Source of the DNA: Minisyncoccia bacterium
GTDB lineage: Bacteria > Patescibacteriota > Minisyncoccia > Phycocordibacterales > GWA1-40-21
Direction of reading: 5' to 3'
DNA: 64,000 nt
Assembly (NCBI GenBank): GCA_049287185.1
Contig: JBAQFI010000012.1
Span: 166,179-230,178 of the forward strand
The notes below the pieces were generated by a model. That model was given only the letters and a program-made list of their open reading frames with translations. It ran no database searches and was not told the DNA's origin. Shown here piece by piece: positions 1,316-62,799 of the stretch. Position numbers and translations under genes: made by a program. Each line of letters begins with the position of its first letter. Within the stretch, counting starts at the first letter, position 1.

Positions 1316-1699
1316 AATTTTTTATATATATTAGATGTTTTGATATCGCCTTTTCTATAAAAAGCGAAATCCAGACTTTTACGTCTGGTTTTAATATACT
1401 ATCACCTTTCAGCTTTCTTGTCAAGAGAAGACAATGACTTTAGTACCCTGTCAAACGAGATAAAATGGCTAAGAATAAGGGTTTTTAACTTGACAAAGGG
1501 GGTATTTTATAGGGCAGAATTTTGGGACTTTTTAAAAGTTGTGTTATCGTTTAGTACCTTTCGAGTCTTGAATGGTAAAAATTAGAAGTTTGCGCCATAT
1601 TTCTCATTATTTTATAAACTTTCCAAAGAAAAAAGGGCTCGTCTACATAATATATTTGTAAGACAAGCCCTTTATTAGAAATTTACTCCCCTTTATATT

Positions 1700-5381: not shown

Positions 5382-5861
5382 CTATTTAAGTCCCAGGCAA
5401 CCACTCGCCGCTGTTAAGCCAGCTGCTTGTGCCTCTTCATAACTATTATACCAAACTTTATTAGCTTCAGAAATTCGAGAGACACCAGAGCACCAGGGAA
5501 AATAATAACGTGTACCACTTTTTGAAGCGACTAACATACCTTTTTGATCAGGAGTTTTTGCAACTTCAGTCAGTACTCCATCAGCAGTTTTCAGTGAAAG
5601 TTTATTTTCAAAATTTTGTGGGCAGATCAATTTCTTAATATCTAGTGTTTCATTATTACTTTCGAAACCGGACAATCTACCCAACCCGAAGCCCACTAAA
5701 CCAACTAGAATAATTACCAAGAAAATAAACAAATCACTTTTCCAATTGGAGTCTGAGACTAACATAACCTTGTTTCTAAGGTTATTTTTGAATCCAACTC
5801 CCCTACTTCTAATTTTGACCATTGAGGGCTTGATTTTTTCCTTAATTTCTTCTATACTCAT
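5382..5861 (-). CDS. membrane-anchored protein with C-terminal Cys-containing domain (YxPWCSG ... GC); start trimmed to internal Met to avoid overlap with rpmA
   Basis: TM segment then conserved-looking Cys motif; ORF-track start 5957 overlaps L27 start. Confidence 0.4.
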   Translation of the reverse strand: MSIEEIKEKIKPSMVKIRSRGVGFKNNLRNKVMLVSDSNWKSDLFIFLVIILVGLVGFGLGRLSGFESNNETLDIKKLICPQNFENKLSLKTADGVLTEVAKTPDQKGMLVASKSGTRYYFPWCSGVSRISEANKVWYNSYEEAQAAGLTAASGCLGLK

Positions 5862-5902
5862 GCCGTATCCTATTATAACAGAAATAAGTATAAAAAAAGA
5901 CC

Positions 5903-6178
5903 ATGTCAACAAAAAAAGCCGCCGGTGTGTCCAAAAACGGTAGAGATTCGAATCCAAGATATCTTGGGGTTAAGCTTTTTGATGGTCAAATTGCTCAAAT
6001 CGGTTCTATCATAGTTCGTCAAAAAGGCCGTGAAGTTATGGCTGGTCAAAATGTTGGAGTTGGTAAAGATCATACCCTTTTTGCCCTCAAAGCTGGTAAA
6101 GTGGAATTTGGTTCTAAAAGAAAAACCGGTTTTAACTCTAAAACTGTATTGAAGAAAACTGTCAGTGTTATTGCTTAA
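5903..6178 (+). CDS. rpmA: 50S ribosomal protein L27
   Basis: GRDSNP...LGVK...GQN...GKDHTLFA motif pattern typical of L27. Confidence 0.9.
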
Positions 6179-6185
6179 TATTAAA

Positions 6186-6210
6186 GACCGCCATCTAGGC
6201 GGTTTTTTTG
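6186..6210 (+). terminator. rho-independent terminator after rpmA (accgcc atct aggcggt + T7)
   Basis: hairpin plus T-run. Confidence 0.7.
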
Positions 6211-6314
6211 TGTGTTTACAATAGTAACATTTTATGGTATCTTAGAAAGGAAAAGTTCTTAAAAATTTTAACGTATTGGTCAGACAAATATGATTTGTCA
6301 GGCCAAAAGGAGGC

Positions 6315-6635
6315 ATGATGTCTAACGATAATTCAGTAATGAATTCGATCAAATTTGACGCCAAGTTTTTCCTGGGCTGGTGGAAACTTCTGTTTCTTAC
6401 AGCTGGAGAAAAAATCGAGGAATTCTTGGATTGGTTGTTTATGTTAAGTTTCCTGATCTTCGGCCTGTTTATTGATTTCTTCACTTTCGGTCCCAAAAAA
6501 CCTGAACCAGAAGAAATTCGTAACGTTCCGTTATATACTACCAAAGTTGTCCTGGTTTTGTTTCTACTATGGCTCATCGTCATATTAGGTTCTGGAATTA
6601 TTTGGATGGTATGGTATATATTGGAAAAAACATGA
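6315..6635 (+). CDS. small multi-pass membrane protein, hypothetical
   Basis: AAGGAGG RBS 2 nt upstream of ATG; hydrophobic segments; preferred over antisense ORF 6242-6640. Confidence 0.5.
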   Translation: MMSNDNSVMNSIKFDAKFFLGWWKLLFLTAGEKIEEFLDWLFMLSFLIFGLFIDFFTFGPKKPEPEEIRNVPLYTTKVVLVLFLLWLIVILGSGIIWMVWYILEKT

Positions 6636-6651
6636 AACAATTATGAAACAA

Positions 6652-6680
6652 AACGCGTCTTTTCGAAGGCGCGTTTTTTT
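6652..6680. terminator. bidirectional terminator hairpin (aacgcgtc ttttcgaa ggcgcgtt + T-run) between membrane protein gene and uvrC
   Basis: hairpin with T-runs on both strands. Confidence 0.6.
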
Positions 6681-6689
6681 GGTAAATTT

Positions 6690-7943
6690 TTATAGAAGTG
6701 ACTTCTTTCTTAACTGACGACGGTGGGCACCAATGGCAAAACGATGGGCCTCACCATTTATTTCTAATATTTGTTTAGAGTATTTTTTAGTAATGCTAGT
6801 TGAACCAATAATGGCTTTTGGCTGATGCTTTTCATTTTTAACCACGGAAACTACTGGCATAGTTAAATTTTTATCTGTTAAAATTTGTGTTGCTACTTTT
6901 ATCTGTCTTTTATCTCCATCAACTACAATTAAATCTGGTAAAGTCCATTCTGGGTGGTTCAGCCGACGAATTATAAGTTCTCTCAAGGCAGCCAGATCAT
7001 CGCGCTGACTATCCTTAATATTAAACAAACGATATTTCTGAGGTGTGAGTTCACCATTCTCGCTAACGACCATCACTCCTATTTCCGCAGCTCCAGCATG
7101 GTGTGCCACATCATAGGCTTCAATTCTAAATTTATTATTCGTATGATATTCGTTTGTCGATTCGTTGTATTCGTCCATTCGTATATTCGTTAAGCTGTCA
7201 TTTTTAATCAGTGCCACGTCCTGAATATGTTGTGGTGCAAAAAGAGTTCGTTTAACAACATTGGCTTCCTCAAATTTATGTTCTTTAGCCAAGGTTTTCA
7301 TTTCGCTATTTAACTCCTTTACCAAAGTTTTCTTTCTACCAGATAAAAAGTATTTGAGGTGGCGGATTATTTTATTGTAATCACGTTTCGAAATTAAACC
7401 GGAACAAGTACCAGGACAAAGACCAATCTGATAATTAAAACATGGTCTGTTTAGATTTAATGCACATTCACTGCGAAAAGGAAAAATTTTACGAATTATT
7501 CTTAGAGCTTCCTTAAGTGAATTACTTTGAGTAAAAGGTCCAAACTTTTCAGAAATCGGAAAATCAAAATCTTTCTCCAATTCCCTACCACGAATAGTTA
7601 GAACTCTGGGAAAATCTTCTTTGGTTATCACTACCCAATTAAAACTTTTATCATCTTTTTCTTTGGTGTTGTAATAAGGTGTGTGTTTTTTAATTAATGA
7701 GGCTTCAAGAATTAAGGCTTCTAAAACTGAATCTGTGACTTCAAAATCTATCCTGTCAGTCTTGGTTACCATATCTACTAAAAGTGGTCCGCGAGTAGCA
7801 ATCAAATCATTAGCAAAATAACTACGAACACGGTCGCGTAGTGACGTCGCCTTTCCGATATACAAAATCTCCGAGCCTCTCTTAAAGAAGTAAACTCCAG
7901 GCAAATCAGGTAAATTCAGTTTTTTTATATATTGACTTTTCAT
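6690..7943 (-). CDS. uvrC: excinuclease ABC subunit C, short form (GIY-YIG plus RNase H-like endonuclease domain, no C-terminal HhH); carries an in-frame repeat insertion
   Basis: GIY-YIG N-terminus (GVYFF...LYIGKA), UvrC endonuclease domain (IEAYDVAH, VVDGDKRQ). Confidence 0.85.
   Translation of the reverse strand: MKSQYIKKLNLPDLPGVYFFKRGSEILYIGKATSLRDRVRSYFANDLIATRGPLLVDMVTKTDRIDFEVTDSVLEALILEASLIKKHTPYYNTKEKDDKSFNWVVITKEDFPRVLTIRGRELEKDFDFPISEKFGPFTQSNSLKEALRIIRKIFPFRSECALNLNRPCFNYQIGLCPGTCSGLISKRDYNKIIRHLKYFLSGRKKTLVKELNSEMKTLAKEHKFEEANVVKRTLFAPQHIQDVALIKNDSLTNIRMDEYNESTNEYHTNNKFRIEAYDVAHHAGAAEIGVMVVSENGELTPQKYRLFNIKDSQRDDLAALRELIIRRLNHPEWTLPDLIVVDGDKRQIKVATQILTDKNLTMPVVSVVKNEKHQPKAIIGSTSITKKYSKQILEINGEAHRFAIGAHRRQLRKKSLL
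7136..7196. repeat. CGAAT-rich repeat (family A) half-copy inserted in frame inside uvrC (encodes ...IRMDEYNESTNEYHTNN...)
   Basis: about 90 percent identity to intergenic copies at 47157-47213 and rc of 11219-11290; lies at an extra about 17 aa segment relative to E. coli UvrC between the conserved helix and the RxEAxDxxH motif. Confidence 0.65.
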
Positions 7944-11218: not shown

Positions 11219-11358
11219 TACGAATTTCTATACTAATATACGAATGGACGAATGATGCGAATCGATCAACAAATATTATACGAATTAAGAAAATTTCTTT
11301 GTTTGTGTGTCATTTGTTAATCGATTTGTTGTATTTGTGTTATTTGTTGATTTGTTAA
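11219..11358. repeat. CGAAT-rich palindromic repeat element (family A), two inverted half-copies; right half decayed CG to TG (tttgtt units)
   Basis: matches 47076-47213 and 7136-7196. Confidence 0.6.
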
Positions 11359-12516: not shown

Positions 12517-12966
12517 TTAGACTTCTAACGGCTTAATCGAAACACGCAATTTAGCATTTCCACCAGCCGATTGAATATCAATATCATGATTGCCAACTTC
12601 TTTTATTGGTTTATCGAGAATAATAAACTCCGGTAAAATATCGATATGAGCTTGCTTCTTTAATTCAGAAACCAATTGTTCCTTGTGAATTCCTGCGAAC
12701 AAATGTCCTTTGTCATTGGTTTTACCGTGAATCTCTAGAACTGTTGAATTTATTGAAGCTAAATTCATCTTTAGCAAATCATCATTAACAGTTTGAAACT
12801 TTTCATCTTTTTCCTTAAGGGCTGTAATTTTTTTAATATTTTCTGGATTAGCCACAATTGCTTCTCCGTGTGGAATAAGCATGTTCAAAGCAAAGCCATC
12901 AGCCACTTCCTTGGTTTCATATTTCTTCCCTACTTTTCGAACATCTTTTAGTAAAATTATTTTCAT
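12517..12966 (-). CDS. rplI: 50S ribosomal protein L9
   Basis: MKIILLKDV...GK.G....V.DGFA.N.LIP N-terminal L9 signature. Confidence 0.9.
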   Translation of the reverse strand: MKIILLKDVRKVGKKYETKEVADGFALNMLIPHGEAIVANPENIKKITALKEKDEKFQTVNDDLLKMNLASINSTVLEIHGKTNDKGHLFAGIHKEQLVSELKKQAHIDILPEFIILDKPIKEVGNHDIDIQSAGGNAKLRVSIKPLEV

Positions 12967-12969
12967 ATT

Positions 12970-13034
12970 ATTTACCCGGTAAAGTTTTGACTAGTTAAAA
13001 ATCGTAGATTTTTCAGTCAAAATTTTTGCGGGTT
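12970..13034. repeat. MITE-like module family C (tttacccggtaaagttttgac ... gtcaaaatttttgcgggttg), imperfect inverted termini
   Basis: same module in opposite orientation at 21008-21073; termini reused at 47776-47808 and 52823-52903. Confidence 0.55.
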
Positions 13035-13045
13035 GATTCGTTTAC

Positions 13046-14290
13046 TTATTTGTTAATAACTTCCAACGCTTTGATCATCTGTGGATCTCGTCCTTTGACT
13101 CTATCTTCTTCTGTTATTTTTACCTCAAAATCTGGTTTAAGTCCACTCTCGGAAATTGAATAGCCATTTGGGGTAAGCCAACGAGCAATAGTGACCTTCA
13201 AATTACTGTTTTCACCAATTTTTACCACTTCTTGAACAGAACCCTTACCAAAAGTCTTCGTACCAACTATTTGAGCTAAACCGTGATCCCTAAGAGCACC
13301 AGCTAAAATTTCAGAGGCAGAAGCTGAACCCTCATTGGCCAAAATAACTAATTTTAATTTGTCTGTAAAAATTTGATGTCCATTGGCTCGATGAATTTTT
13401 TCGTCTTGCTCATCACTACCAACTTCTCGAACTATTACTTTACCTAATGGTAAAAACCATGAGGCCATGTCCACTGCTGATTCCAGATATCCACCAGGGT
13501 TACCACGTAAATCCAAAATCATCTTATCACTATCAGAAGCCAGAAATTCCTTTAAAGCCCCGCGGAAAAGATTGGCTGATTGAGCGTAAAAATTGTAAAG
13601 ATGAATAATGAAAACTCCATCCTTTTGTTCAGTGGCGACAGTTGGAATATTTATTACATCACGAGTAACTTTTTTTTCTAGATAATCATTATTACCTTCG
13701 CGAGCAATTTTAAAGGTAACCTCTGTCCCCTTTGGTCCACGGATTAATTTTACAGCAGCATCGACAGATATATCCTGAGTACTACTACCATTAATCGTGA
13801 TGATTTTGTCACCCGGCAAAATTCCCGCTCGTTCCGCTGGGGTGCCTTTGAGTGGCGCAATAACCGTCAAAATTCCATCTTTTTGCCCGACTTCCATTCC
13901 TACCCCCTCAAACCCACCACTGATGTCTTCGTCAAAACTCTTAGCTTCTTCAGGTGGCATGAAAACTGTATATGGATCACCAAAAGCTGAGGTCATACCT
14001 TGAATGGCTCCGTATAATTTCTCTTGATTAGTGGCGGGTTTAGCACTTTTTGTGGCCACGAACTTCTTATCTAAAATTTTCCATGTTTCCCAAAATTGTT
14101 TCATATCAATCGAATCGGTAGTAGAACCAGTAATGGTTAAATCAAAATTATTCTTAATATTTAAACCATCAACAGGATTGGTAACATTATTTTGACCCAA
14201 AACAAAACCGCCAAAAAAAGCGCTGGCAAATAAAAAGACTACAAACAAAGGCACGCCATAAACTTTCAGAAAATCTTTTTGCATATGCAT
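13046..14290 (-). CDS. ctpA: C-terminal processing peptidase S41 with PDZ domain, N-terminal membrane anchor
   Basis: PDZ segment and S41 catalytic region (GNPGG, SASASE-like Ser/Lys motif region). Confidence 0.8.
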   Translation of the reverse strand: MHMQKDFLKVYGVPLFVVFLFASAFFGGFVLGQNNVTNPVDGLNIKNNFDLTITGSTTDSIDMKQFWETWKILDKKFVATKSAKPATNQEKLYGAIQGMTSAFGDPYTVFMPPEEAKSFDEDISGGFEGVGMEVGQKDGILTVIAPLKGTPAERAGILPGDKIITINGSSTQDISVDAAVKLIRGPKGTEVTFKIAREGNNDYLEKKVTRDVINIPTVATEQKDGVFIIHLYNFYAQSANLFRGALKEFLASDSDKMILDLRGNPGGYLESAVDMASWFLPLGKVIVREVGSDEQDEKIHRANGHQIFTDKLKLVILANEGSASASEILAGALRDHGLAQIVGTKTFGKGSVQEVVKIGENSNLKVTIARWLTPNGYSISESGLKPDFEVKITEEDRVKGRDPQMIKALEVINK

Positions 14291-16759: not shown

Positions 16760-16834
16760 GTATTAGAAAGTATTGAGTATATAGTATATGGTATATAGTA
16801 TAAAACTAATGACTTTGCTATAGCAAAGTCATTA

Positions 16835-16867
16835 TACTGTATACTAAATACTTGATACTATATACCA
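16835..16867. repeat. heptad direct repeats (ATACTNN)x4-5
   Basis: similar arrays at 19841-19877 and 52741-52770. Confidence 0.5.
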
Positions 16868-16978
16868 TTAATTCTGTCCCCAACATAAGCACAGTTTTTA
16901 CACTTTTATTAGTTTGCTAATGTCTTTGTTATTGGTAAAATATGATAGTAATATTTAATTCTAGGTTTATTCCCTTCT

Positions 16979-17066
16979 CCGTCATTGCGAGCGAAGCGAA
17001 GCAATCCAGACTTAATTAATTTTAAAATCCTGGATTGCCGCGGATGAGTACATCCTCGCAATGACA
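16979..17066. repeat. inverted-repeat element family IR-A (arms gtcattgcgagcgaagcgaagcaatccag / ctggattgccgc...ctcgcaatgac), immediately upstream of dnaB
   Basis: arm family recurs at 19239, 27667, 47803, 49757, 51080, 52845, 54418, 56743. Confidence 0.6.
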
Positions 17067-17080
17067 GAAAAAACAAAACA

Positions 17081-19238: not shown

Positions 19239-19412
19239 CGTCATTGCGAGCCAGTACTCTGGCGCGGCAATCCATCTTAAAAGATAAAATTAATCCTCAC
19301 CACAAGGGCATTTCCATTTTCTACCACGGAGTACCATGAAGAAAATTAGATCACATCGGGAATCCAGTCAAAATTAATTCTGGATCCCATCGTGAGGTCT
19401 TGCCTCACGATG
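19239..19412. repeat. IR-A family element with long internal segment (caccacaagggcatttccattttcta...), right arm degenerate
   Basis: internal segment also inside copies at 49790-49866 and 56810-56870. Confidence 0.5.
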
Positions 19413-19840: not shown

Positions 19841-19877
19841 CATACTAAATACTACATACTTGATACTGAATACTAAA
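19841..19877. repeat. heptad direct repeats (ATACTNN)x5 upstream of rplU promoter-like TTGCAA-N17-TATATT
   Basis: 7 bp periodicity of AGTAT on the rplU coding strand. Confidence 0.5.
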
Positions 19878-20955: not shown

Positions 20956-21007
20956 ATTATAGCAAATATGCTAAGATATTTAAACAGCTAATAATTATTA
21001 GATTTAA

Positions 21008-21073
21008 CCCACCCGCAAAAATTTTGACTGAAAAATCTCCGATTTTTAACTAGACAAAACTTTATCGGGCAAG
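21008..21073. repeat. MITE-like module family C, reverse orientation relative to 12970-13034, ends 4 nt before the yqeY-like start codon
   Basis: about 90 percent identical over about 60 bp. Confidence 0.55.
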
Positions 21074-21076
21074 AAC

Positions 21077-21535
21077 ATGATTATATTAAGACAAAAAATA
21101 AAAGATGAGACCAAGGATGCGATGATTAAGAAAGACGCTGTCCGTCTTATGACTCTACGTAACCTGGCTGATGTTGTCACCAAAGAATTTGTTGTTAAAG
21201 GTATAAAAAAAGACGAGGAAGTCACTGAAGATGATGTTTTAACTATTATTCGTAGGTTAGTAAAACAACGTAAAGATTCAATCGAACAATTCACCAAAGG
21301 TGGTCGCCCAGAATTAGCAGAAAATGAAACTGCCGAAATGAAAATCCTGGAGGCTTACCTACCACAGATGATGAGCAAAGATGAAATTAAAAAAATTGCT
21401 GAAGCTAAAAAAATTGAACTTGGCATCACAGATAAAACTAAACTTGGACAATTTGTTGGGACACTTATGAAAGAACTGAAAGGTAAAGCTGACGGTGCTG
21501 ATGTTAAGGCAGTAGCAGAGGAACTATTTAATTAA
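21077..21535 (+). CDS. GatB/YqeY domain protein
   Basis: YqeY-family conserved segments (LRNL...KQRKDSI...GR.ELAE). Confidence 0.75.
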   Translation: MIILRQKIKDETKDAMIKKDAVRLMTLRNLADVVTKEFVVKGIKKDEEVTEDDVLTIIRRLVKQRKDSIEQFTKGGRPELAENETAEMKILEAYLPQMMSKDEIKKIAEAKKIELGITDKTKLGQFVGTLMKELKGKADGADVKAVAEELFN

Positions 21536-22643: not shown

Positions 22644-22715
22644 GGCCCTATCGTCTAACGGTTAGGACAGAGCCTTCTCAAGGCTTAAATCGGGGTTCGA
22701 TTCCCCGTAGGGTCA
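22644..22715 (+). tRNA. tRNA-Glu (anticodon CUC)
   Basis: manual cloverleaf: acceptor GGCCCTA/TAGGGTC, D-loop AACGGTTA, anticodon loop TTCTCAA, T-loop TTCGATT. Confidence 0.8.
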
Positions 22716-27637: not shown

Positions 27638-27666
27638 TATTTTTTAATATTTAATTTGTTGTATTT

Positions 27667-27738
27667 GTCATTCCCGCGCAGGCGGGAATCCAGGTCTTTC
27701 TTTTAATTTTTCTGGATTCCCGCCTGCGCGGGAATGAC
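27667..27738. repeat. IR-A family element, canonical form: gtcattcccgcgcaggcgggaatccag - 18 bp - ctggattcccgcctgcgcgggaatgac, inside the cop operon
   Basis: perfect inverted arms each containing an 8 bp GC hairpin. Confidence 0.65.
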
Positions 27739-27764
27739 AGAGGATAATTTATAGTTAGTAATTA

Positions 27765-45908: not shown

Positions 45909-45925
45909 ATATTACCTAGTAAAGT

Positions 45926-47075: not shown

Positions 47076-47213
47076 GAATTAACGAATCAACAAATGGACA
47101 AATGATACGAATCGAATTGACGAATTTCAACGAATAAAAATATCTCCAGTATTCATTCGTATGATATTTGTTAATCGATTCGTTGTATTCGTGTCATTCG
47201 TATATTCGTTAAA
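47076..47213. repeat. CGAAT-rich palindromic repeat element (family A), two inverted half-copies
   Basis: matches 11219-11358 and 7136-7196. Confidence 0.6.
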
Positions 47214-47215
47214 TG

Positions 47216-47767
47216 TTACAAAGAGATTTCTTTTTCTTTTCTTGCAAAAACTTCTTCCAGTTTCAAATTTGAATCATCAACATATTTTTGTAATTCAACT
47301 TTGTTGCGCTTGTGATCATCTTCACCAATTAAACCATCATCTTTTTTCTTATCAAGGTCAGTAAGAGTGTCGGTTCTGGCTGAGCGCAAAGAAATACGAG
47401 CATCTTCCAATTTTGATTTTGCCAATTTAAGTAAAGTGGTTCTAGTTTCGGAGGTTAATTCAGGAAAATTGACTCGGATACCCTTATCATCCGACATAAC
47501 GGACACACCAAGGTTAGCCACTTGAATCGCTTTTTCTAGAGCCTTTAGAACACTGTTGTCCCACGGGACTACACGTAAAGAACGTGCCCCTTCAGTAGTA
47601 ATACCTGCCACTTGATTGACTGGGCTCATTTGACCATAAGCCTCAACACGAACGCCATCGAGAATCATTGGTGAAGCCTGACCAGTACGAATTCCCTGAT
47701 ATTCTTTATGTAGCCAATCCTCTACTTCTTTAACCTTATTCTTAAAAATATTAAAATCGTAAGCCAT
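47216..47767 (-). CDS. frr: ribosome recycling factor
   Basis: full-length RRF similarity. Confidence 0.95.
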   Translation of the reverse strand: MAYDFNIFKNKVKEVEDWLHKEYQGIRTGQASPMILDGVRVEAYGQMSPVNQVAGITTEGARSLRVVPWDNSVLKALEKAIQVANLGVSVMSDDKGIRVNFPELTSETRTTLLKLAKSKLEDARISLRSARTDTLTDLDKKKDDGLIGEDDHKRNKVELQKYVDDSNLKLEEVFARKEKEISL

Positions 47768-47802
47768 ATGTTTGATTTACCCGGTAAAGTCGACAATTCT
47801 GA

Positions 47803-47835
47803 TTGTCGTCCCCGCGCAGGCGGGGATCCAGTCAG
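47803..47835. repeat. solo IR-A-variant arm (gattgtcgtccccgcgcaggcggggatccagtc) preceded by gacaattctgattgtc palindrome and TTTACCCGGTAAA palindrome just upstream of the frr start
   Basis: same composite upstream of murA at 52823-52903. Confidence 0.5.
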
Positions 47836-47952
47836 ATTATCTTTCTTTCGGGTTAAATTATTACTTGTAATTATACCCGTATTCTAACATAAAACAACAA
47901 ACAAAAGAAAACTGCACCATTTCTGATGCAGTTATGTTTCTGTTTTTTACTT

Positions 47953-48953: not shown

Positions 48954-49760
48954 TTACGCCAATCTAGGTAAAATAATCGCAATATACTCCAAAATAATCT
49001 TAAATGATGACGAGGGATCCTCTGAATAGCGGCAATTTTTTTCTAACTCTGTTAGCCATGACAGATTTTCTTTGGTCTGTTTTTTGTCTTTAACTTTTTG
49101 GAAACAAAGTTTAAGTAATTGTCGTAAAAATTCAGAAATATCCCCCCTCGAAATTTCCTCGTCAGTTCTAGCAGATAGAATTTCACCAACTATTTTTAAG
49201 CGGTCAGCGATACTGCCAGCTAAAAATTCAGATTCATTAAACAAACTGGCACCCTCTTTAAAGGCTGGAATTTCTTCATTCACATCAATAATGACTAAAC
49301 GCGATGAAACTGTCGGTAACAAACGACTTGCGGTCGGTAAAATCAAAAAAATTTTGGTATCTGCTGTCGGTTCTTCAAAAAATTTTAACAAGGAATTTTG
49401 GGCATTAATGTGAATGTCATCAGCCATAATGACTATCACTTTGTTTTTGGCTTGTACTGGAAAACTCTGAGCCGGTAAAATTATCTCTTCTAAAATAGTA
49501 TTGTAATTTGGTTTACCTTCGGGATGAAGTTTTAGTAAGTCATATTCTCGTAAAGAAAAATCCGGATGACCAGTGGTATCAAAATCTAGTTTTTCCAATA
49601 GTTCGCTCTTTAATTCAGTTAAAATAGTTTGTTTGTCCCCCACTAAACAATAAGCGTGATGAGAAAAATCACAGTTTAGTTTTGTAATATTTTTTTTCTG
49701 AGATTTTGCAGACATGGAGAGATTATAACATGAACAAATTATGTTTCTCCAGTCTGTCAT
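48954..49760 (-). CDS. holB: DNA polymerase III delta-prime-like clamp-loader subunit (degenerate P-loop, LPTVSSR sensor region); likely starts at internal Met about 49715
   Basis: AAA+ clamp loader box motifs (FEEP, T.FIL). Confidence 0.65.
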   Translation of the reverse strand: MTDWRNIICSCYNLSMSAKSQKKNITKLNCDFSHHAYCLVGDKQTILTELKSELLEKLDFDTTGHPDFSLREYDLLKLHPEGKPNYNTILEEIILPAQSFPVQAKNKVIVIMADDIHINAQNSLLKFFEEPTADTKIFLILPTASRLLPTVSSRLVIIDVNEEIPAFKEGASLFNESEFLAGSIADRLKIVGEILSARTDEEISRGDISEFLRQLLKLCFQKVKDKKQTKENLSWLTELEKNCRYSEDPSSSFKIILEYIAIILPRLA

Positions 49761-49892
49761 TCCCGCGCAGGCGGGAATCCAGAAATAATAATCAATATTA
49801 ATAAAAACTGACTTTCCGTTGTGACCTAATTTTCTTGAGCGTAGCGATTAGAAAATGGAAATGCCCTTGTGGTACGCGGGAATGACAGAGGA
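49757..49892. repeat. IR-A family element with long internal segment
   Basis: left arm perfect, right arm partial. Confidence 0.55.
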
Positions 49893-51079: not shown

Positions 51080-51160
51080 TCTGTCATTCCCGCGCAGGCG
51101 GGAATCCAGGATTAGATCAAAATAAAATTTCTGGATTCCCGCCTGCGCGGGAATGACAAG
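51080..51160. repeat. IR-A family element, canonical two-arm form
   Basis: near-identical to 27667-27738. Confidence 0.65.
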
Positions 51161-52657: not shown

Positions 52658-52687
52658 AAAGAATATTATCATCACAGGTTATTTTGT

Positions 52688-52731
52688 AAAGACATCGAGA
52701 CAGAGTGTCTCGATGTCTTTATTTTTCTTTG
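52688..52731 (+). terminator. strong terminator aaagacatcgagaca-gag-tgtctcgatgtcttt + T-run
   Basis: 15 bp stem. Confidence 0.75.
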
Positions 52732-52740
52732 TTTAATACT

Positions 52741-52770
52741 AAATACTGTATACTAGATACTATATACTTT
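52741..52770. repeat. heptad direct repeats (ATACTNN)x4
   Basis: same motif as 16835 and 19841. Confidence 0.5.
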
Positions 52771-52792
52771 TCTGGCTTCTTCATAGCATATG

Positions 52793-52801
52793 TGCTATAA
52801 T
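52793..52801 (+). promoter_or_regulatory. extended -10 TGCTATAAT upstream of HTH-murA
   Basis: TGn-TATAAT. Confidence 0.4.
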
Positions 52802-52822: not shown

Positions 52823-52903
52823 AACCCACAAAAATTGACAATTCAGATTGTCATCCCCGTGAAGACGGGGATCCAGTCTTAATCAAAACTTTACCGGGTA
52901 AAA
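52823..52903. repeat. family C module termini (caacccacaaaaattgac ... tcaaaactttaccgggtaaa) with an IR-A-variant arm (52845-52878) in the middle; ends 2 nt before the murA start
   Basis: aligned against 12970-13034 and 47776-47835. Confidence 0.5.
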
Positions 52904-52905
52904 AT

Positions 52906-54411
52906 ATGGATAATTTAAATCAAATCGGAAAACTAATTTCTACCTTAAGGCAACAAAAAGGCCTAACTCAGGAACAATTTGCTCAAAAATTAAATACCAC
53001 TCAAAGCGCTATTGCTCGCATTGAAAATGGTGAACAAAATCTAACTACTGAAATGATTTCCAAAATCAGCGAAACTCTAGAAAATAGTTTAGTTTGTGTC
53101 GCTGATGGAGCTATAAATATTGAAATTCACGGTGGTAAAAAACTGGCCGGAGAAATAATTACTAGAACATCCAAAAACGGAGCGGTGGGTCTCCTCTGTG
53201 CTTCCCTACTCAACAAAGGCAAAACTACTTTAAAAAATGTACCAAAGATTGAAGAGGTATATCGTATTATTGAAGTTCTAATTAGTATTGGTGTCAGCAT
53301 CAAATGGGTAAATAATGATTTGGAAATAAAAGTCCCAGCCAAATTATCTTTGAGTAAAATCAATCGGGACTCGGCTATTAAAACTCGCAGTATCATAATG
53401 TTTTTTGGCCCACTAATTCACGAATTTAAAAAATTTCGTTTACCTCGTAGTGGTGGCTGTAAACTTGGTGCTCGATCTATTCAGCCTCACATCTACGCAC
53501 TAGAGGAACTCGGGGTAAAAATTGAAACTAAAGAAAAATATTATGAAATCACTCATAGCGGTTTAAACAAAAATAGAGAAATAATTCTTTATGAGGCTGG
53601 TGACACCGTGACGGAAAACGCTATTATGGCCGCCGCTCGCTTACCCGGCACAACTACTATCAAATACGCCTCCGCCAATTATATGGGTCAGGACCTGTGC
53701 TTCTTTTTGGAAAAGCTAGGTGTAAAAATTCAGGGTATTGGCACCACTACTATCATTGTGGAGGGTAAGGAAAAAATTAACGAAGACATCATTTATTATC
53801 TTGGGGAAGATCCGATTGATAGTATGTTTTTTATTTCTGTCGCAGCCACCACCAATTCTAAAATGAAAATCACTCGTTGTCCGATTAACTTCCTAGAAAT
53901 GGAGTTACTCAAACTAGAAAAAATGGGTTTAAAATTTAAGAAATCAAAAACTTATAAATCTTTAAATGAAAGACTGGACTTAGTTGATATTCAAATTTTT
54001 CCGTCAAAACTCGTTGCCTTGGAAGATAAAATTGAAGCCCATCCTTATCCAGCCATTAATATTGATAACCTACCTTTCTTTGCCGTGATTGCCACCCAAG
54101 CTCAAGGCCAAACTTTTATCCACGACTGGGTTTATGAAAAACGCGCCATCTATTACACTGAGCTAAATAAGCTCGGTGCAGATACCCTTCTAGCTGACCC
54201 TCACAGATTTTATGTGAATGGTAAGACCACTCTAAAACCTGCGGAAATAATCTGCCCGCCAGCTCTCCGTCCAGCGGCCATAATTTTAATTGGTATGCTC
54301 GCCGCCAAAGGACGCTCAGTTTTGCGAAATATCTATAGTATAAATCGCGGTTATGAAGATATTACTAAAAGATTGAATGACATTGGCGCCGATATTCGTA
54401 TTTTAAGATAG
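52906..54411 (+). CDS. murA: UDP-N-acetylglucosamine 1-carboxyvinyltransferase with an N-terminal XRE-family HTH domain (fusion)
   Basis: HTH LRQQKGLTQEQFA...SAIARIENG; MurA GGKKLAGEI, catalytic Cys loop RSGGCKLGARS, C-terminal RGYEDI. Confidence 0.85.
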   Translation: MDNLNQIGKLISTLRQQKGLTQEQFAQKLNTTQSAIARIENGEQNLTTEMISKISETLENSLVCVADGAINIEIHGGKKLAGEIITRTSKNGAVGLLCASLLNKGKTTLKNVPKIEEVYRIIEVLISIGVSIKWVNNDLEIKVPAKLSLSKINRDSAIKTRSIIMFFGPLIHEFKKFRLPRSGGCKLGARSIQPHIYALEELGVKIETKEKYYEITHSGLNKNREIILYEAGDTVTENAIMAAARLPGTTTIKYASANYMGQDLCFFLEKLGVKIQGIGTTTIIVEGKEKINEDIIYYLGEDPIDSMFFISVAATTNSKMKITRCPINFLEMELLKLEKMGLKFKKSKTYKSLNERLDLVDIQIFPSKLVALEDKIEAHPYPAINIDNLPFFAVIATQAQGQTFIHDWVYEKRAIYYTELNKLGADTLLADPHRFYVNGKTTLKPAEIICPPALRPAAIILIGMLAAKGRSVLRNIYSINRGYEDITKRLNDIGADIRILR

Positions 54412-54417
54412 TTTTTT

Positions 54418-54606
54418 CTGTCATTCCCGCGCAGGTTGAAATTTGGGATGGGACCCAAATGAAAGACCTTGAGCGTTTTGTCTTCAAAATGTGAAAGGTG
54501 TACTGCTCCTGTAAGGAGAGAAATTCCAGTCCTTCTATGTTAAAACAATTTACGATTCCTAGATTCCCGCCTGCGCGGGAATGACAACACGAATAACAGG
54601 TTGAAA
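54418..54606. repeat. IR-A family element with left arm interrupted after gcgcag by about 115 bp and duplicated caggttgaaattt / tttttctgtcatt flanks (nested or rearranged copy)
   Basis: right arm intact at 54552-54580. Confidence 0.45.
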
Positions 54607-56742: not shown

Positions 56743-56916
56743 CACTCACACTCCGTCATTGCGAGCTGGTATTCCAGCGTGGCAATCCAGGATAATTCAT
56801 AAAAATTAAATACGGAGTCTCACCACAAGGGCATTTCCATTTTCTAATCGCTTCGCTCAAGAAAATTAGGTCTGGATTGCCACGCTTCGCTCGCAATGAC
56901 CGAAGAAGAGTGTGAG
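56743..56916. repeat. IR-A family element (gtcattgcgagctgg...caatccag / ctggattgccacgcttcgctcgcaatgac) with extended outer inverted repeat cactcacactc/gagtgtgag and the shared internal segment
   Basis: seen directly. Confidence 0.55.
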
Positions 56917-57551: not shown

Positions 57552-58401
57552 TCAAAACATAAAAACTGCCTTTATGGGTAGTTCTGAATTTTCCGTTATT
57601 GTTTTAGACAATCTTAAAAAGGCTGGACTAATTCCCGATTTGATTGTGTCAGCTCCTGACAAACCACGTGGTCGCAAAATGGTCATCACTCCAAATGAAG
57701 TGAAAACCTGGGCCATTAAAAATAATATCCCAGTTGTGACTCCTGACAAATTAAAAAATCCTGATTTTCTGGAAGTAATTAAAAATCACGATTTACACAT
57801 TGTTGCTTCCTACGGCAAAATAATTCCGGCTGGAGTTTTATCCAGTGCCAAATATGGCAGTGTAAATATTCATCCTTCCCTACTACCAAAATATCGTGGC
57901 CCATCACCACTCCAAACAGCTATTTTAAATAATGACAAAAATACTGGCATTTCCATTATGCTTTTAGATGCCGAAGTGGATCACGGACCAATTTTAGCTC
58001 AAGAAAATATTTCTCCTGAAAACTGGCCTGTTTCTTTTAATGAACTGGAAAAAATTACGGCTGAGGCTGGAACAAAATTGCTTATCAAAGTTTTACCTGA
58101 CTGGATAAATAATTCGATAAAAGCCCGCGAGCAAGATCACAGCCAAGCAACTTTTACCAAAAAAGTTGAGAAAACTCACGGTCTGATTAGTCTTACCGAT
58201 AAACCTATGACTAATTTACTGAAAACTAAGGCTTATAGCGAATGGCCCAATACTTATTTTATTGTTAAACACAAAGATCGAGATATCCGAGTCATTGTCA
58301 AAGATGCTAAACTTGAGGCTGGTCAGTTTGTCCCAACGAGAGTTATTCCAGAAGGAAAAAAAGAAATGGACTATAAATCATTTCTTCAGGGACTTAAATA
58401 G
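57538..58401 (+). CDS. fmt: methionyl-tRNA formyltransferase (start at MIINN, 14 nt overlap with def)
   Basis: formyltransferase N-domain SLLPKYRG motif and C-domain. Confidence 0.9.
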   Translation: MIINNQNIKTAFMGSSEFSVIVLDNLKKAGLIPDLIVSAPDKPRGRKMVITPNEVKTWAIKNNIPVVTPDKLKNPDFLEVIKNHDLHIVASYGKIIPAGVLSSAKYGSVNIHPSLLPKYRGPSPLQTAILNNDKNTGISIMLLDAEVDHGPILAQENISPENWPVSFNELEKITAEAGTKLLIKVLPDWINNSIKAREQDHSQATFTKKVEKTHGLISLTDKPMTNLLKTKAYSEWPNTYFIVKHKDRDIRVIVKDAKLEAGQFVPTRVIPEGKKEMDYKSFLQGLK

Positions 58402-58405
58402 CACA

Positions 58406-58441
58406 AAAAAACTACTAACCATAATGGTTAGTAGTTTTTTT
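58406..58441. terminator. bidirectional terminator aaaaactactaacc-ataa-tggttagtagttttt
   Basis: seen directly. Confidence 0.75.
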
Positions 58442-58444
58442 GTG

Positions 58445-59029
58445 CTATTTAAGTGTGACACTCTTTATAACCACGGGAGTGATCAACCCTCCTCTATTAT
58501 TTTTCGGGGCCTTGGCCATAGCAGACAAAATATCTAGACCATTAGTTACCCTAGCGAATACTGCGTGTTCACCCTCTAGCCACGGTGCAGCATAGCCAGT
58601 AACAATAAAGAAACCACCACTCTTCTCACCAGTAACTGTTCCCAGTGAACCAAAGGTCATATGTTCATTATTTACTTCATTCCATGACACCTCCATTGTT
58701 GAGGTCGGAGCAGAAAACTGAATGAAATCATTTACCATATCGGACATTCTAACCCCATTATATAAACCAGCTTTAGTTAATTTAATAAATGAATTAACTG
58801 ACAGAGGTGCCGCTTCCTTCAAAAAAGAGATTTCTAAAATACCAAAATTGGTTTCAATGATTGCCCCTTTGGCTGAAGAGTTTAAATTACCAGCATTATC
58901 AATATTGTTATTCGCAAAATAAAGGGAAAGAGATACTGTTATCATCAATAGGAAAATAACAATACTGGAAATTAAAATTGAACGATGTTTTACAAGGTTT
59001 TGTATCATACTACTCTTCCTTACTACCAC
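58445..59029 (-). CDS. ppiB: membrane-anchored cyclophilin-type peptidyl-prolyl isomerase
   Basis: cyclophilin core motifs (FIKL...G.Y.G, FFI). Confidence 0.85.
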   Translation of the reverse strand: MVVRKSSMIQNLVKHRSILISSIVIFLLMITVSLSLYFANNNIDNAGNLNSSAKGAIIETNFGILEISFLKEAAPLSVNSFIKLTKAGLYNGVRMSDMVNDFIQFSAPTSTMEVSWNEVNNEHMTFGSLGTVTGEKSGGFFIVTGYAAPWLEGEHAVFARVTNGLDILSAMAKAPKNNRGGLITPVVIKSVTLK

Positions 59030-59764: not shown

Positions 59765-59836
59765 TCCGTGGTAGCTCAGTGGTAGAGCGATCGCCTGTTA
59801 AGCGATTGGTCGTAGGTTCGATCCCTACCCACGGAG
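59765..59836 (+). tRNA. tRNA-Asn (anticodon GUU)
   Basis: manual cloverleaf: acceptor TCCGTGG/CCACGGA, anticodon loop CTGTTAA, T-loop TTCGATC. Confidence 0.9.
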
Positions 59837-61378
59837 CAATGTAGGATGAGAGAGCACGAAAGTGCTCTTTTGTCTTTTATTAGCAACGTTTTTCTCTGGT
59901 TCGAAAGTATCATTAAGTACTGGTACCCAATTAGTCAAAAACTGGAAGGCTAAAGTGTAATCTGCACTTATTTCATCTGTGTTTAATGACATGTTCGAAA
60001 ATATTTTGCTGAGAAGTAATCTCTTGTCTTCTATACTGCATCTTGGACTCTTATATATCTCTTCTGCTTTTGACGCTAGTTCATGAATTGCAAAACCAAT
60101 TTCATAATACTTTGTATTTCCTTCATTTAATTTCTTGAGTAATTCAATACCATCTTCCTTATCCTTTGTGTATTCTGCAAATTTTTTATTATAGAATTCC
60201 GGTGTAATCTTTGAATCAATCTTATCTTCATAAATAGCTTCGAGACGCTTTTGTGCTAATTCAACTTGTTGATTGGCTTCCTTTTGCATTGTGACCTGAT
60301 ATTTTATTTCCCCATCATGATTACTTTTAAGTGCTTCTTCAAGAATTTTTAAAACATTTCTTGATTTTGGAGCGACTTTATCAAACAGAGGAAATATCAT
60401 TTCTTCAACTTTCTCCTGACGAAACCACTTCTTTTGACTGCATTTTCGGTAATGATTACAATGTCCATACCAATGTTCTCTTTGAATTTCCCAAGTAACT
60501 GTTCCTTTGCATTCACCACATTCTATCTTTGCTTTAAATACAGGTAGATGTTTTCGATATTGAGGAACCTTAAATTTACGCATCAATTTTTCTTTAACTT
60601 GATCGAAAAGACTTTTGGCTATTATAGGTTCATGCTTGGCTGGATAGAGATTTCCATTCCAACTCATCATGCCGTAATAGAAAGGGTCTGAAAGAAGATC
60701 ATACATTCTTGATTTCCCCACTTTTTTTCCTTCTCTATTTCTTAAACCTTTCTTATACATAAGGTCTGAAAGAGCAGGAGTTGAATAGTTACCAGTTGAA
60801 TATAACCGAAACATTTCAATTATTATTGGTTTTCTCTCCTCATCTATAACATGTATCTTATGCCCTTTATCTCCAATGGTTTTATAACCTAATGGTGGCT
60901 TGGTTGGTAACCAACCCTGAGCTATCTTCTCTTTTTGCCCCTTTTTTACTTCTTCAGATAGATTAGCTATATACTTCTTTGCAAGGACAATTTCGATGTC
61001 CCATCTAAACTTCTCGTCTGATTTTGAGTATTTATGTATTACAAGATTTTGTTTTACAAAATGAATTTGTCTTTCGCAATTTTCTTCAACCCAGTTATTT
61101 ACGTCTAAAGCTTCTTTCAAATTCCTAGTTAGTCTATCAACTTTCTCGCATAATAATACTGATATACCATTTCTTAACATATAGCTCATCATTTCTCCGA
61201 ATATCTTTCTTTGTTTAGCACCACTTGCTGATTCTGCCACTGAAAAGGTCTTATCAACTTCAAATCCCCTCCTTTCTGCGTAATCAATCAAAAGTTTTTC
61301 CTGGGCTGGTAATGAATAACCTGTTTCTTCTTGTTCTTTAGATGATACCCTACAATATGCTACTGATTTAATTTTCAT
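59825..61378 (-). CDS. large serine recombinase/integrase (resolvase catalytic domain YCRVSSKEQ, recombinase domain, Zn ribbon), 3' end abuts tRNA-Asn
   Basis: catalytic Ser motif and domain order. Confidence 0.85.
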   Translation of the reverse strand: MKIKSVAYCRVSSKEQEETGYSLPAQEKLLIDYAERRGFEVDKTFSVAESASGAKQRKIFGEMMSYMLRNGISVLLCEKVDRLTRNLKEALDVNNWVEENCERQIHFVKQNLVIHKYSKSDEKFRWDIEIVLAKKYIANLSEEVKKGQKEKIAQGWLPTKPPLGYKTIGDKGHKIHVIDEERKPIIIEMFRLYSTGNYSTPALSDLMYKKGLRNREGKKVGKSRMYDLLSDPFYYGMMSWNGNLYPAKHEPIIAKSLFDQVKEKLMRKFKVPQYRKHLPVFKAKIECGECKGTVTWEIQREHWYGHCNHYRKCSQKKWFRQEKVEEMIFPLFDKVAPKSRNVLKILEEALKSNHDGEIKYQVTMQKEANQQVELAQKRLEAIYEDKIDSKITPEFYNKKFAEYTKDKEDGIELLKKLNEGNTKYYEIGFAIHELASKAEEIYKSPRCSIEDKRLLLSKIFSNMSLNTDEISADYTLAFQFLTNWVPVLNDTFEPEKNVANKRQKSTFVLSHPTLLRG

Positions 61379-62026: not shown

Positions 62027-62799
62027 ATATTTTAGATTAATAATAAAACTGCCTACTTCTACTTAAATAGATTTAAGATTAAAACTTCATAATATTTGAA
62101 TACGAAAAAAGCCCTATTTACCTCATAGTAGGAATCTTCACAGACCTACCATGAGCTAAACAGGGTTCTTTATGTGAAGATTTTGTTATATACACAAGAC
62201 TTTGAAATAGACGTAATTCAATAGAATTCGACCTTAGAAAGCTTTAAAACTTAAATGAGCAACCGAAATATACATATTCATATTAATAAAGTAATTCTAA
62301 CATAGTCCCAAAAAGTCATCTTAATATCTGAAAGATATTAAATAAAAAATGAAAATAACCTTATAATATAGGGGTTTTCTTATAAAATGTCTGATGTAAC
62401 ACTAATTTAGTTTTGATAGTGGGGGGGGGCGTAGTTAAGTTTAACTTCCCTAGATATCCAAGAGACCCTAGGGTAACCAAACTATTTATGCTTCGGAAAA
62501 TTATTCTCAATTTCAAAATCGAGCGGTCAAAAAAATTTCTAAAATTTTCACAGAAAATAGGGTTGGCAAGGTTAAATAGAAAGGGTAGAATATAAGGGTC
62601 GGTAAAACTAAATATGTGACCTAACCTCCACAGAGTAATTTATGGAGCACGGTCTTAAATCGTAAGCCACAAACAACCTATCATTAGGGCGTGGCTTACG
62701 TTATACCGGGAAACTGGTATATGGCCGCAAGGCCTCCTAGTGGTAGGCTTTTTGTTGCTTATTTTTTAGGATTACTAATTAAAAACAAAAGAAAATTAA

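Follow-up and report, generated by a model that had tools for sequence, protein, structure and literature searches.

A probable MITE/REP-like palindromic element in the gene leaders of a Minisyncoccia bacterium

A short palindromic module recurs directly before start codons in the stretch of DNA presented above, and the question that it raises is whether this position marks a regulatory site or the insertions of a mobile element. The original prediction allowed two readings, a mobile promoter/leader cassette or a shared operator or translation-control site for ribosome- and envelope-related genes. From our analysis of the whole 64,000-nt stretch, hereafter called the window, and of related sequences, we consider the module to be probably a MITE/REP-like small palindromic mobile element residing in the leaders of an uncultured lineage of Minisyncoccia (Parcubacteria, CPR), and not a conserved operator or promoter. 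This reading follows from the combination of inverted-repeat ends, swapped interiors, filled and empty orthologous sites, patchy spread, assembly breaks and a copy within a coding loop.

The 15-nt right end of the module, ACTTTACCGGGTAAA, has three exact matches in the window, at 12971-12985 (-), 47776-47790 (-) and 52888-52902 (+), plus a fourth with three mismatches at 21059-21073 (+), which bears out the predicted repetition of the module before four start codons, with three exact copies and one decayed (table 1). When up to three mismatches are allowed, 11 matches are present in the window (GC content about 36%) against 2.3 expected, and none of 100 shuffled sequences contained as many. 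Two other matches were set aside: that at 45911-45925 sits after a terminator and belongs to no module copy, and that at 22714, overlapping tRNA-Glu at its 3' end, is regarded as a chance match.

Table 1. Positions of the module copies, of the genes that follow them and of neighbouring features in the window.
Feature	Position	Strand	Remarks
rplI, ribosomal protein L9	12517-12966	-	Pfam L9; downstream of copy A
Module copy A	12971-13034	-	rplI side; fills the 79-nt spacer after the S41 peptidase gene
Spacer bounds of copy A	S41 peptidase stop 13046-13048; rplI ATG 12966
Terminal pair of copy A	ACCCG 13033-13029; CGGGT 12978-12974		flanking AAA 12973-12971
13-mer TTTACCGGGTAAA of copy A	12971-12983	-	6-1-6 palindrome
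Putative yqeY extended -10 TGcTAAGAT	20969-20977	+	~33 nt upstream of the left end of copy D
Module copy D	21011-21073	+	right end decayed to ACTTTATCGGGCAAG; before yqeY
yqeY-like gene	21077-21535	+	Pfam YqeY; downstream of copy D
frr, ribosome recycling factor	47216-47767	-	Pfam RRF
Module copy B	47776-47853	-	frr leader; left end ACCCGAAAGAAAG.., right end GACTTTACCGGGTAAA
42-nt REP-like unit nested in copy B	47792-47833		GACAATTCTGATTGTC + GTCCCCGCGCAGGCGGGGATCCAGTC hairpin
frr extended -10 TGtTAGAAT (TTTTATGYTAGAAT)	47881-47889	-	conserved in L111 and L108
Terminator-like hairpin ahead of frr promoter	47933-47910
Terminator-like hairpin ahead of murA promoter	52686-52722
Native murA promoter block TAGCATATGTGCTATAAT	52784-52801	+	extended -10 TGcTATAAT at 52793-52801
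Module copy C	52824-52902	+	HTH-murA leader; left end ACCCACAAAAATTGAC, right end ATCAAAACTTTACCGGGTAAA
42-nt REP-like unit nested in copy C	52837-52878
HTH_3 (XRE)-MurA fusion gene	52906-54411	+	Pfam HTH_3+EPSP_synthase
REP-like hairpins	27666-27739, 49755-49786, 51082-51158, 54412-54435, 54559-54586
REP-like hairpins, further sites	16978-17078, 19239-19274, 56752-56903

The module measures 63-90 bp and contains no ORF intrinsic to the element. Its ends form imperfect inverted repeats of 18-20 nt (AACCCGCAAAAATTTTGAC and GTCAAAACTTTACCGGGT, 14 of 18 positions pairing), within which the terminal 5-bp pair ACCCG...CGGGT is perfect in copies A and B and in a copy from the related contig L103 that is described below. 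Copies A and D are 91% alike across 67 nt and have in common the left end AACCCGCAAAAATTTTGAC and the interior TGAAAAATCTNCGATTTTTAACTAG, a simple hairpin. The interior of copies B and C is a nested REP-like 42-mer consisting of GACAATTCWGATTGTC and an ATCCCCG..CGGGGAT hairpin, the orientation of which relative to the outer ends is opposite in the two copies; other hairpins take its place in relatives. In copy D the right-end 15-mer differs by three substitutions, which all fall in the 13-nt palindrome, and the remaining ~50 nt by three more. The 13-mer TTTACCGGGTAAA, originally described as a perfect palindrome, is more exactly a 6-1-6 arrangement whose reverse complement differs at the centre base, and it is made up of the subterminal TTTAC, the terminal CGGGT and the flanking AAA.

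Each copy is predicted to fold into one long imperfect hairpin closed by ACCCG:CGGGU, with energies ranging over all copies from -12.7 to -38.5 kcal/mol and z-scores from -2.4 to -8.4 (copy A, -19.7 kcal/mol, z -4.8; copy B, -34.5 kcal/mol, z -4.9). In the predicted fold the left half of the 13-mer (CGGGU) pairs with the ACCCG of the left arm and not with its own right half, leaving unpaired the AAA of the 13-mer together with the A-rich spacer and the AUG. Folding is no worse for the antisense than for the sense strand, indeed slightly better, and the symmetry is thus that of an inverted repeat at the DNA level and not of an RNA tuned on one strand; strand-specific RNA selection was rejected on the same ground. 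None of the families of Rfam 15 reaches its gathering threshold for the module, also when the search threshold is relaxed. The B- and C-type interiors give weak matches to FtrB (Francisella sRNA B) at 52835-52941 and 47790-47875 (+), with 29 and 20 bits against a threshold of 66, the other sub-threshold matches having E > 0.6; these FtrB matches probably reflect a common REP-like hairpin and not homology.

The position of the module relative to native promoters bears directly on the cassette reading. The murA promoter block is alike at 17 of 18 positions in the syntenic contig L108, which has TATACT and is devoid of the module, and the extended -10 of frr is likewise conserved in relatives (table 1). 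Since these conserved promoters lie upstream of the module, the latter was inserted inside the 5' leader and not ahead of it, and the comparison places the copies of frr and murA between the native extended -10 promoters and the start codons. The yqeY copy appears to lie downstream of its promoter too, given a similar extended -10 motif, a site assigned by analogy with the murA and frr promoters in place of the overlapping weaker one that the two-hexamer scan lists. Transcription starts downstream of the palindrome had been named as an outcome contrary to the original prediction; the starts that we infer lie upstream, and the palindrome would be transcribed.

It is very unlikely, in our judgement, that the module is a mobile promoter that drives the downstream gene with the TTGAC of its left end as the -35 box. 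The consensus TTGAC(T/A) is indeed present in the left end, copies A and D have TAACTA 17 nt further on, and the spacer around copy A leaves almost no room for another promoter. Yet TAACTA is without the invariant T6, copies B, C and that of L103 have unrelated sequence at the -10 position, and the conserved extended -10s of murA and frr lie upstream, also in the module-free relatives. Promoter and terminator scans of the four loci flag nothing inside the module above shuffle level, and no consistent sigma-70 -35/-10 pair with the spacing of 16-18 nt was found in the module, the interiors differing just where the -10 would lie; the module does not have the make-up of a sigma-70 promoter. What survives of the cassette is the mobile leader, in keeping with the empty orthologous sites, inverted-repeat ends, variable interior, alr copy and contig breaks, and what finds no support is the promoter, in view of the extended -10s upstream that module-free relatives keep.

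Tandem heptads of the form ATACTNN, in four to five units, occur at 52736-52768, 19842-19874 and 16834-16866 (+) and at 16769-16801 (-), the three-unit pattern having 12 matches against 0.04 expected. The array at 52736-52768 closely precedes the conserved extended -10 of murA, and a similar sequence, tatacttatactagatactt, is found upstream of the frr promoter of L108; such heptads may act as an upstream promoter element or form a binding array.

Orthologous sites in relatives are variously empty, filled or differently filled. L108, with an RRF 74% identical to that of the window, keeps the murA and frr promoter blocks (the latter as TTTTATGCTATAAT) followed by leaders of ~33-37 nt with no module. 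The rplI spacer is of 48 nt and module-free in L190/L191 (L9 72% identical), measures 117 nt in a 79% relative, and the alr site is empty in L188/L192. L111 (RRF 81%) has the frr terminator, promoter and first ~26 leader nt in common with the window, and then, at the point where the window has its module, ~250 nt of other REP-like repeats. L110 (RRF 83%) has an A/D-type module before frr, versus the B-type of the window, with the same right junction. Two frr leaders may show traces of a former module. In L108, ACGAGGTAAAT resembles the right end at 9/11 positions, be it as a relic or by chance; in L111, the sequence ..TTCAAAAC|AAACATATG equals that of L110 minus TTTACCGGGTAAAT, which could be due to deletion of the palindrome or, again, to chance. 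Module copies were sought in 20.5 kb of L108, 21 kb of L192 and 6 kb of L188, and none was found.

These comparisons are hard to reconcile with a shared operator or translation-control site, as the murA, frr and rplI leaders of relatives are without the palindrome and the module keeps no fixed distance to the conserved -10, which depends on how large the interior is. The proposed theme of ribosome and envelope genes likewise finds no support, the other hosts of the module being a flavoprotein gene and an alanine racemase gene. A specific version of this idea would have the palindrome bind HTH-MurA or another dimeric regulator, combining murA autoregulation with co-regulation of rplI, frr and yqeY. 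It would draw on the 6-1-6 symmetry, on the copy placed directly before HTH-murA and on the XRE type of the HTH, but we hold it to be extremely improbable, because L108 keeps the fusion and has no palindrome in its murA and frr leaders or in 20 kb of flanking sequence, and because the palindrome seems to owe its last AAA to the target sequence and not to the element (see below). The half-site spacing of 7 bp is, moreover, short for an HTH dimer. The fusion of an N-terminal XRE-type HTH to MurA (501 aa) is encoded in L108 at 5823-7328.

Outside the window, a metagenome scan with a 19-mer gave seven matches, two of which (L103 and L101) are real relatives. The alanine racemase (Alr) gene of L103 carries an 84-nt in-frame insert that has the module ends at 20/20 (left) and 21/21 (right) nt around a different interior. 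The insert lies between two AAA codons, and the protein has 407 aa versus 379 aa in its closest homologues (78% identical), a difference of 28 aa that equals the length of the insert exactly; a 3-bp duplication, seen as an extra Lys codon, was rejected by the same count. In the AlphaFold model of the L103 protein, residues 124-151 have pLDDT < 50 and lie between a barrel helix and a barrel strand, so that the insert region is predicted to be a disordered loop. Other Alr homologues have in the same loop different REP-derived peptides (..MDSRLRGND.., ..LDSRLHGND.., ..DPGLRRDD..), which are translated GGATTCCCGCCTGCGCGGGAATGAC-type repeats of a kind abundant in the window; further peptides of this loop are PAKILT..VKTLPG and ..LDSTLQWND... 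This surface loop of alanine racemase, seen in L103 (2336-3517) and in the Alr homologues P0121, P0129, P0130, P0137 and P0166, is a hot spot of in-frame insertions of different palindromic repeats in Minisyncoccia/Paceibacteria, and its insertions represent in CPR a phenomenon like that of the Rickettsia palindromic elements (RPE).

In L101 a flavoprotein has its conserved N-terminus, YDVVIIGGGPAGL, joined in frame to the right end of the module. At 1511-1571 (-) of this contig there is no in-frame ATG before YDVVIIGGGPAGL, the sole candidate start being a GTG inside the module (MSVKTLPGK-YDVV..), and the module may supply the start codon and the first nine codons of the flavoprotein. Four short contigs (L001, L189, L110 and L101) start or end inside the module, as is expected of assemblers at multi-copy repeats. 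In total we have seen about eight copies at six distinct loci. Among 185,579 GTDB species genomes, AAACTTTACCGGGTAAA has 98 matches, approximately the number expected by chance, all of which are single, in unrelated taxa and without module context; in IMG/VR the 15-mer has 74 matches, none module-like. A search of the literature on MITE/REP-type repeats in CPR bacteria found no paper, which is absence of evidence only.

The MITE-like character suggested originally is supported. The module is non-coding and small, below the ~500 bp that bound MITEs, with terminal inverted repeats and a variable interior; its copies are dispersed, four in 64 kb, and contigs of the same or a near-identical organism break inside it; it is present or absent at the orthologous sites of murA, frr, rplI and alr, the last with its copy in frame. 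The left flanks end in ..AA in copies A, B, C and L103, the right flanks begin with AAA, and AAA comes after the module in every case. Inside an A6 run of alr the insert accounts for exactly 84 nt, so that no target-site duplication is evident; a TA target-site duplication and a fixed 5' target in the style of IS200/IS605 were both rejected, as neither agrees with the left flanks. The empty sites of murA (..AATCATTGTAAAAATATTATG) and alr (AAA|AAA) already have the A-run that comes after CGGGT, and the terminal AAA of the palindrome is thus best read as target DNA that was there before the insertion and lies outside the element.

A scan of 40 window ORFs revealed neither a transposase or RAYT nor an autonomous partner, and a trans-acting enzyme encoded outside the window would move or copy the module, which would insert into A-runs. 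Transcription of the leader would include the copies, which would fold into a stable stem-loop with a 3' foot 6-11 nt ahead of the AUG, so that the A-rich stretch and the AUG alone would stay unpaired; the rplI copy fills the spacer after the upstream gene. Any effect on expression, through mRNA stability or ribosome access, is probably a by-product, as with Correia or ERIC, and not the work of a dedicated operator.

The proximity of the module to start codons calls for separate consideration. The right end precedes the ATG by 4 nt in rplI (12966), 8 nt in frr (47767), 3 nt in HTH-murA (52906) and 3 nt in yqeY (21077), in agreement with the originally proposed gap, which comes to 3-8 nt in all four copies, and the same end of the module faces the gene in all of them. 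Five of the six loci have the module 0-8 nt from a start codon with the same end toward the gene. If intergenic insertion is assumed to be uniform, a copy comes to lie no more than 10 nt from a start, its right end toward the gene, with a probability of ~0.024, and four out of four do so with one of ~3e-7. Two copies lie on each strand, their orientation tracking gene direction, while the cumulative GC skew falls almost throughout the window (with a small reversal at ~16-24 kb); orientation is thus not tied to the direction of replication. No other sequence class of the window is as rich in A as the 12 nt directly ahead of start codons (42% A), and this explains the proximity partly and not wholly. 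Start-codon proximity and fixed orientation are statistically real, and simple mobility does not explain them. The reported lack of a Shine-Dalgarno sequence is true for these four genes and yet nothing special to them, as an SD-like 4-mer is present in just 12 of 60 genes.

The start bias and the identity of the 15-nt right end despite replaced interiors hint at selection on this end. It is therefore possible, if on balance unlikely, that an element of mobile origin has been exapted, its right end ACTTTACCGGGTAAA or its hairpin being recruited for control of translation or mRNA stability or for protein binding. Besides the distance of no more than 8 nt from the ATG in fixed orientation, and an orientation that follows the gene and not replication, such recruitment would accord with the sameness of the 15-mer in the frr copies of the window and L110, which differ in their interior, and in L101, L103 and L189, which come from diverged genomes, as well as with a predicted stem that always leaves AAA..AUG single-stranded. 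Against it, the orthologous leaders of L108, L111 and L190 work without the module, the substituted right end of copy D betrays no obvious constraint, one copy lies inside a coding region (L103 alr), the sense RNA folds no better than the antisense, and the hosts (L9, RRF, MurA, YqeY, flavoprotein and Alr) form no obvious regulon. We are similarly doubtful that the insertion machinery targets, strand-specifically, the A-rich, melted or ribosome-loaded sequence directly 5' of starts, or else that the right end, ACTTTACCGGGUAAA at the base of the leader stem-loop, has been domesticated as a portable leader that determines translation or mRNA stability in a CPR bacterium with few Shine-Dalgarno sequences. 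If this were so, palindromic repeats would, in view of the Alr hot spot as well, be active agents in the remodelling of both leaders and proteins of CPR genomes. Were the bias in position and orientation to hold genome-wide, it would imply a rule of targeting or selection not yet known.

A mobile palindromic element of this kind resembles known systems in several respects. MITEs are known to lie upstream of genes, to be co-transcribed with them, to be processed by RNase III and to insert in frame (PMC10969869). The Correia elements, MITEs of Neisseria, are like the module small and multi-copy, with inverted-repeat ends, are often located directly upstream of genes or between promoter and gene, and are co-transcribed, their TIRs forming an RNA stem and their interiors showing variants and inversions (PMC10969869). 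The module differs from them in its unrelated taxon (CPR), in the lack of any TA duplication seen or strong outward promoters detected, in its much shorter length of 63-90 bp versus ~100-155 bp and in its striking nearness to the ATG (3-8 nt). To our knowledge, the Correia sequence is unrelated to that of the module. With RPE, which frequently insert in frame into ORFs, the module has in common an in-frame palindromic repeat that adds a peptide to a tolerated loop (the 28 aa of L103 Alr), but it does so in a single case plus a possible N-terminal fusion (L101), whereas the window copies reside in leaders and spacers, and the lineage is different. As far as can be told, the module is a sequence member of neither the Correia nor the RPE family. 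REP/BIME and the NIME of Neisseria are comparable as intergenic mosaics of hairpin units nested either way; the module departs from REP, imperfect palindromes of 20-40 bp that have a conserved GTAG-type head and an associated RAYT (Y1 transposase) gene, in having ACCCG/CGGGT ends with no such head and no Y1_Tnp/RAYT in the window ORFs scanned.

Other REP-like hairpin families are abundant in the window, GTCATTCCCGCGCAGGCGGGAATCCAG and CGTCATTGCGAGC..GCAATCC, often as inverted pairs and in all kinds of intergenic regions including 3' ends. The module is distinct from them by its longer TIRs and by a start-codon bias that they do not have. One of these hairpins overlaps the annotated ATG of a holB-like ORF at 49760, and the true start of this gene is probably further downstream.

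CPR/Patescibacteria have small genomes that are usually described as poor in mobile DNA. The module is an element of a rather ordinary kind, found in a lineage that has received little study. Hairpin repeats near starts and within enzymes affect gene calling, both in the choice of start codons and through spurious peptides, and they explain assembly fragmentation in CPR organisms. Hairpins in leaders also offer a handle on leader function where Shine-Dalgarno sequences are mostly absent.

The window has additional features of a repetitive or mobile nature. Repeats with TTCGT/TTTGT periodicity (ATTCGTATGATATTCGTTTGTCGATTCGTTGTATTCGT) are found at 7137-7190, 11232-11358 and 47155-47212, one of them between the frr stop and the rseP start. 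The gene of a large serine recombinase at 59825-61378 (-) overlaps the 3' end of tRNA-Asn at 59765-59837 (+), which suggests an integrated element at this tRNA. A LOOT RNA (Rfam RF03000, 73 bits) is present at 62618-62735 (+), and a 355-aa ORF that matches nothing in Pfam follows ~65 nt downstream of it. Finally, a perfect 31-nt inverted repeat with a 1-nt gap at 58392-58454, where fmt and the cyclophilin gene converge, probably serves as a bidirectional terminator.
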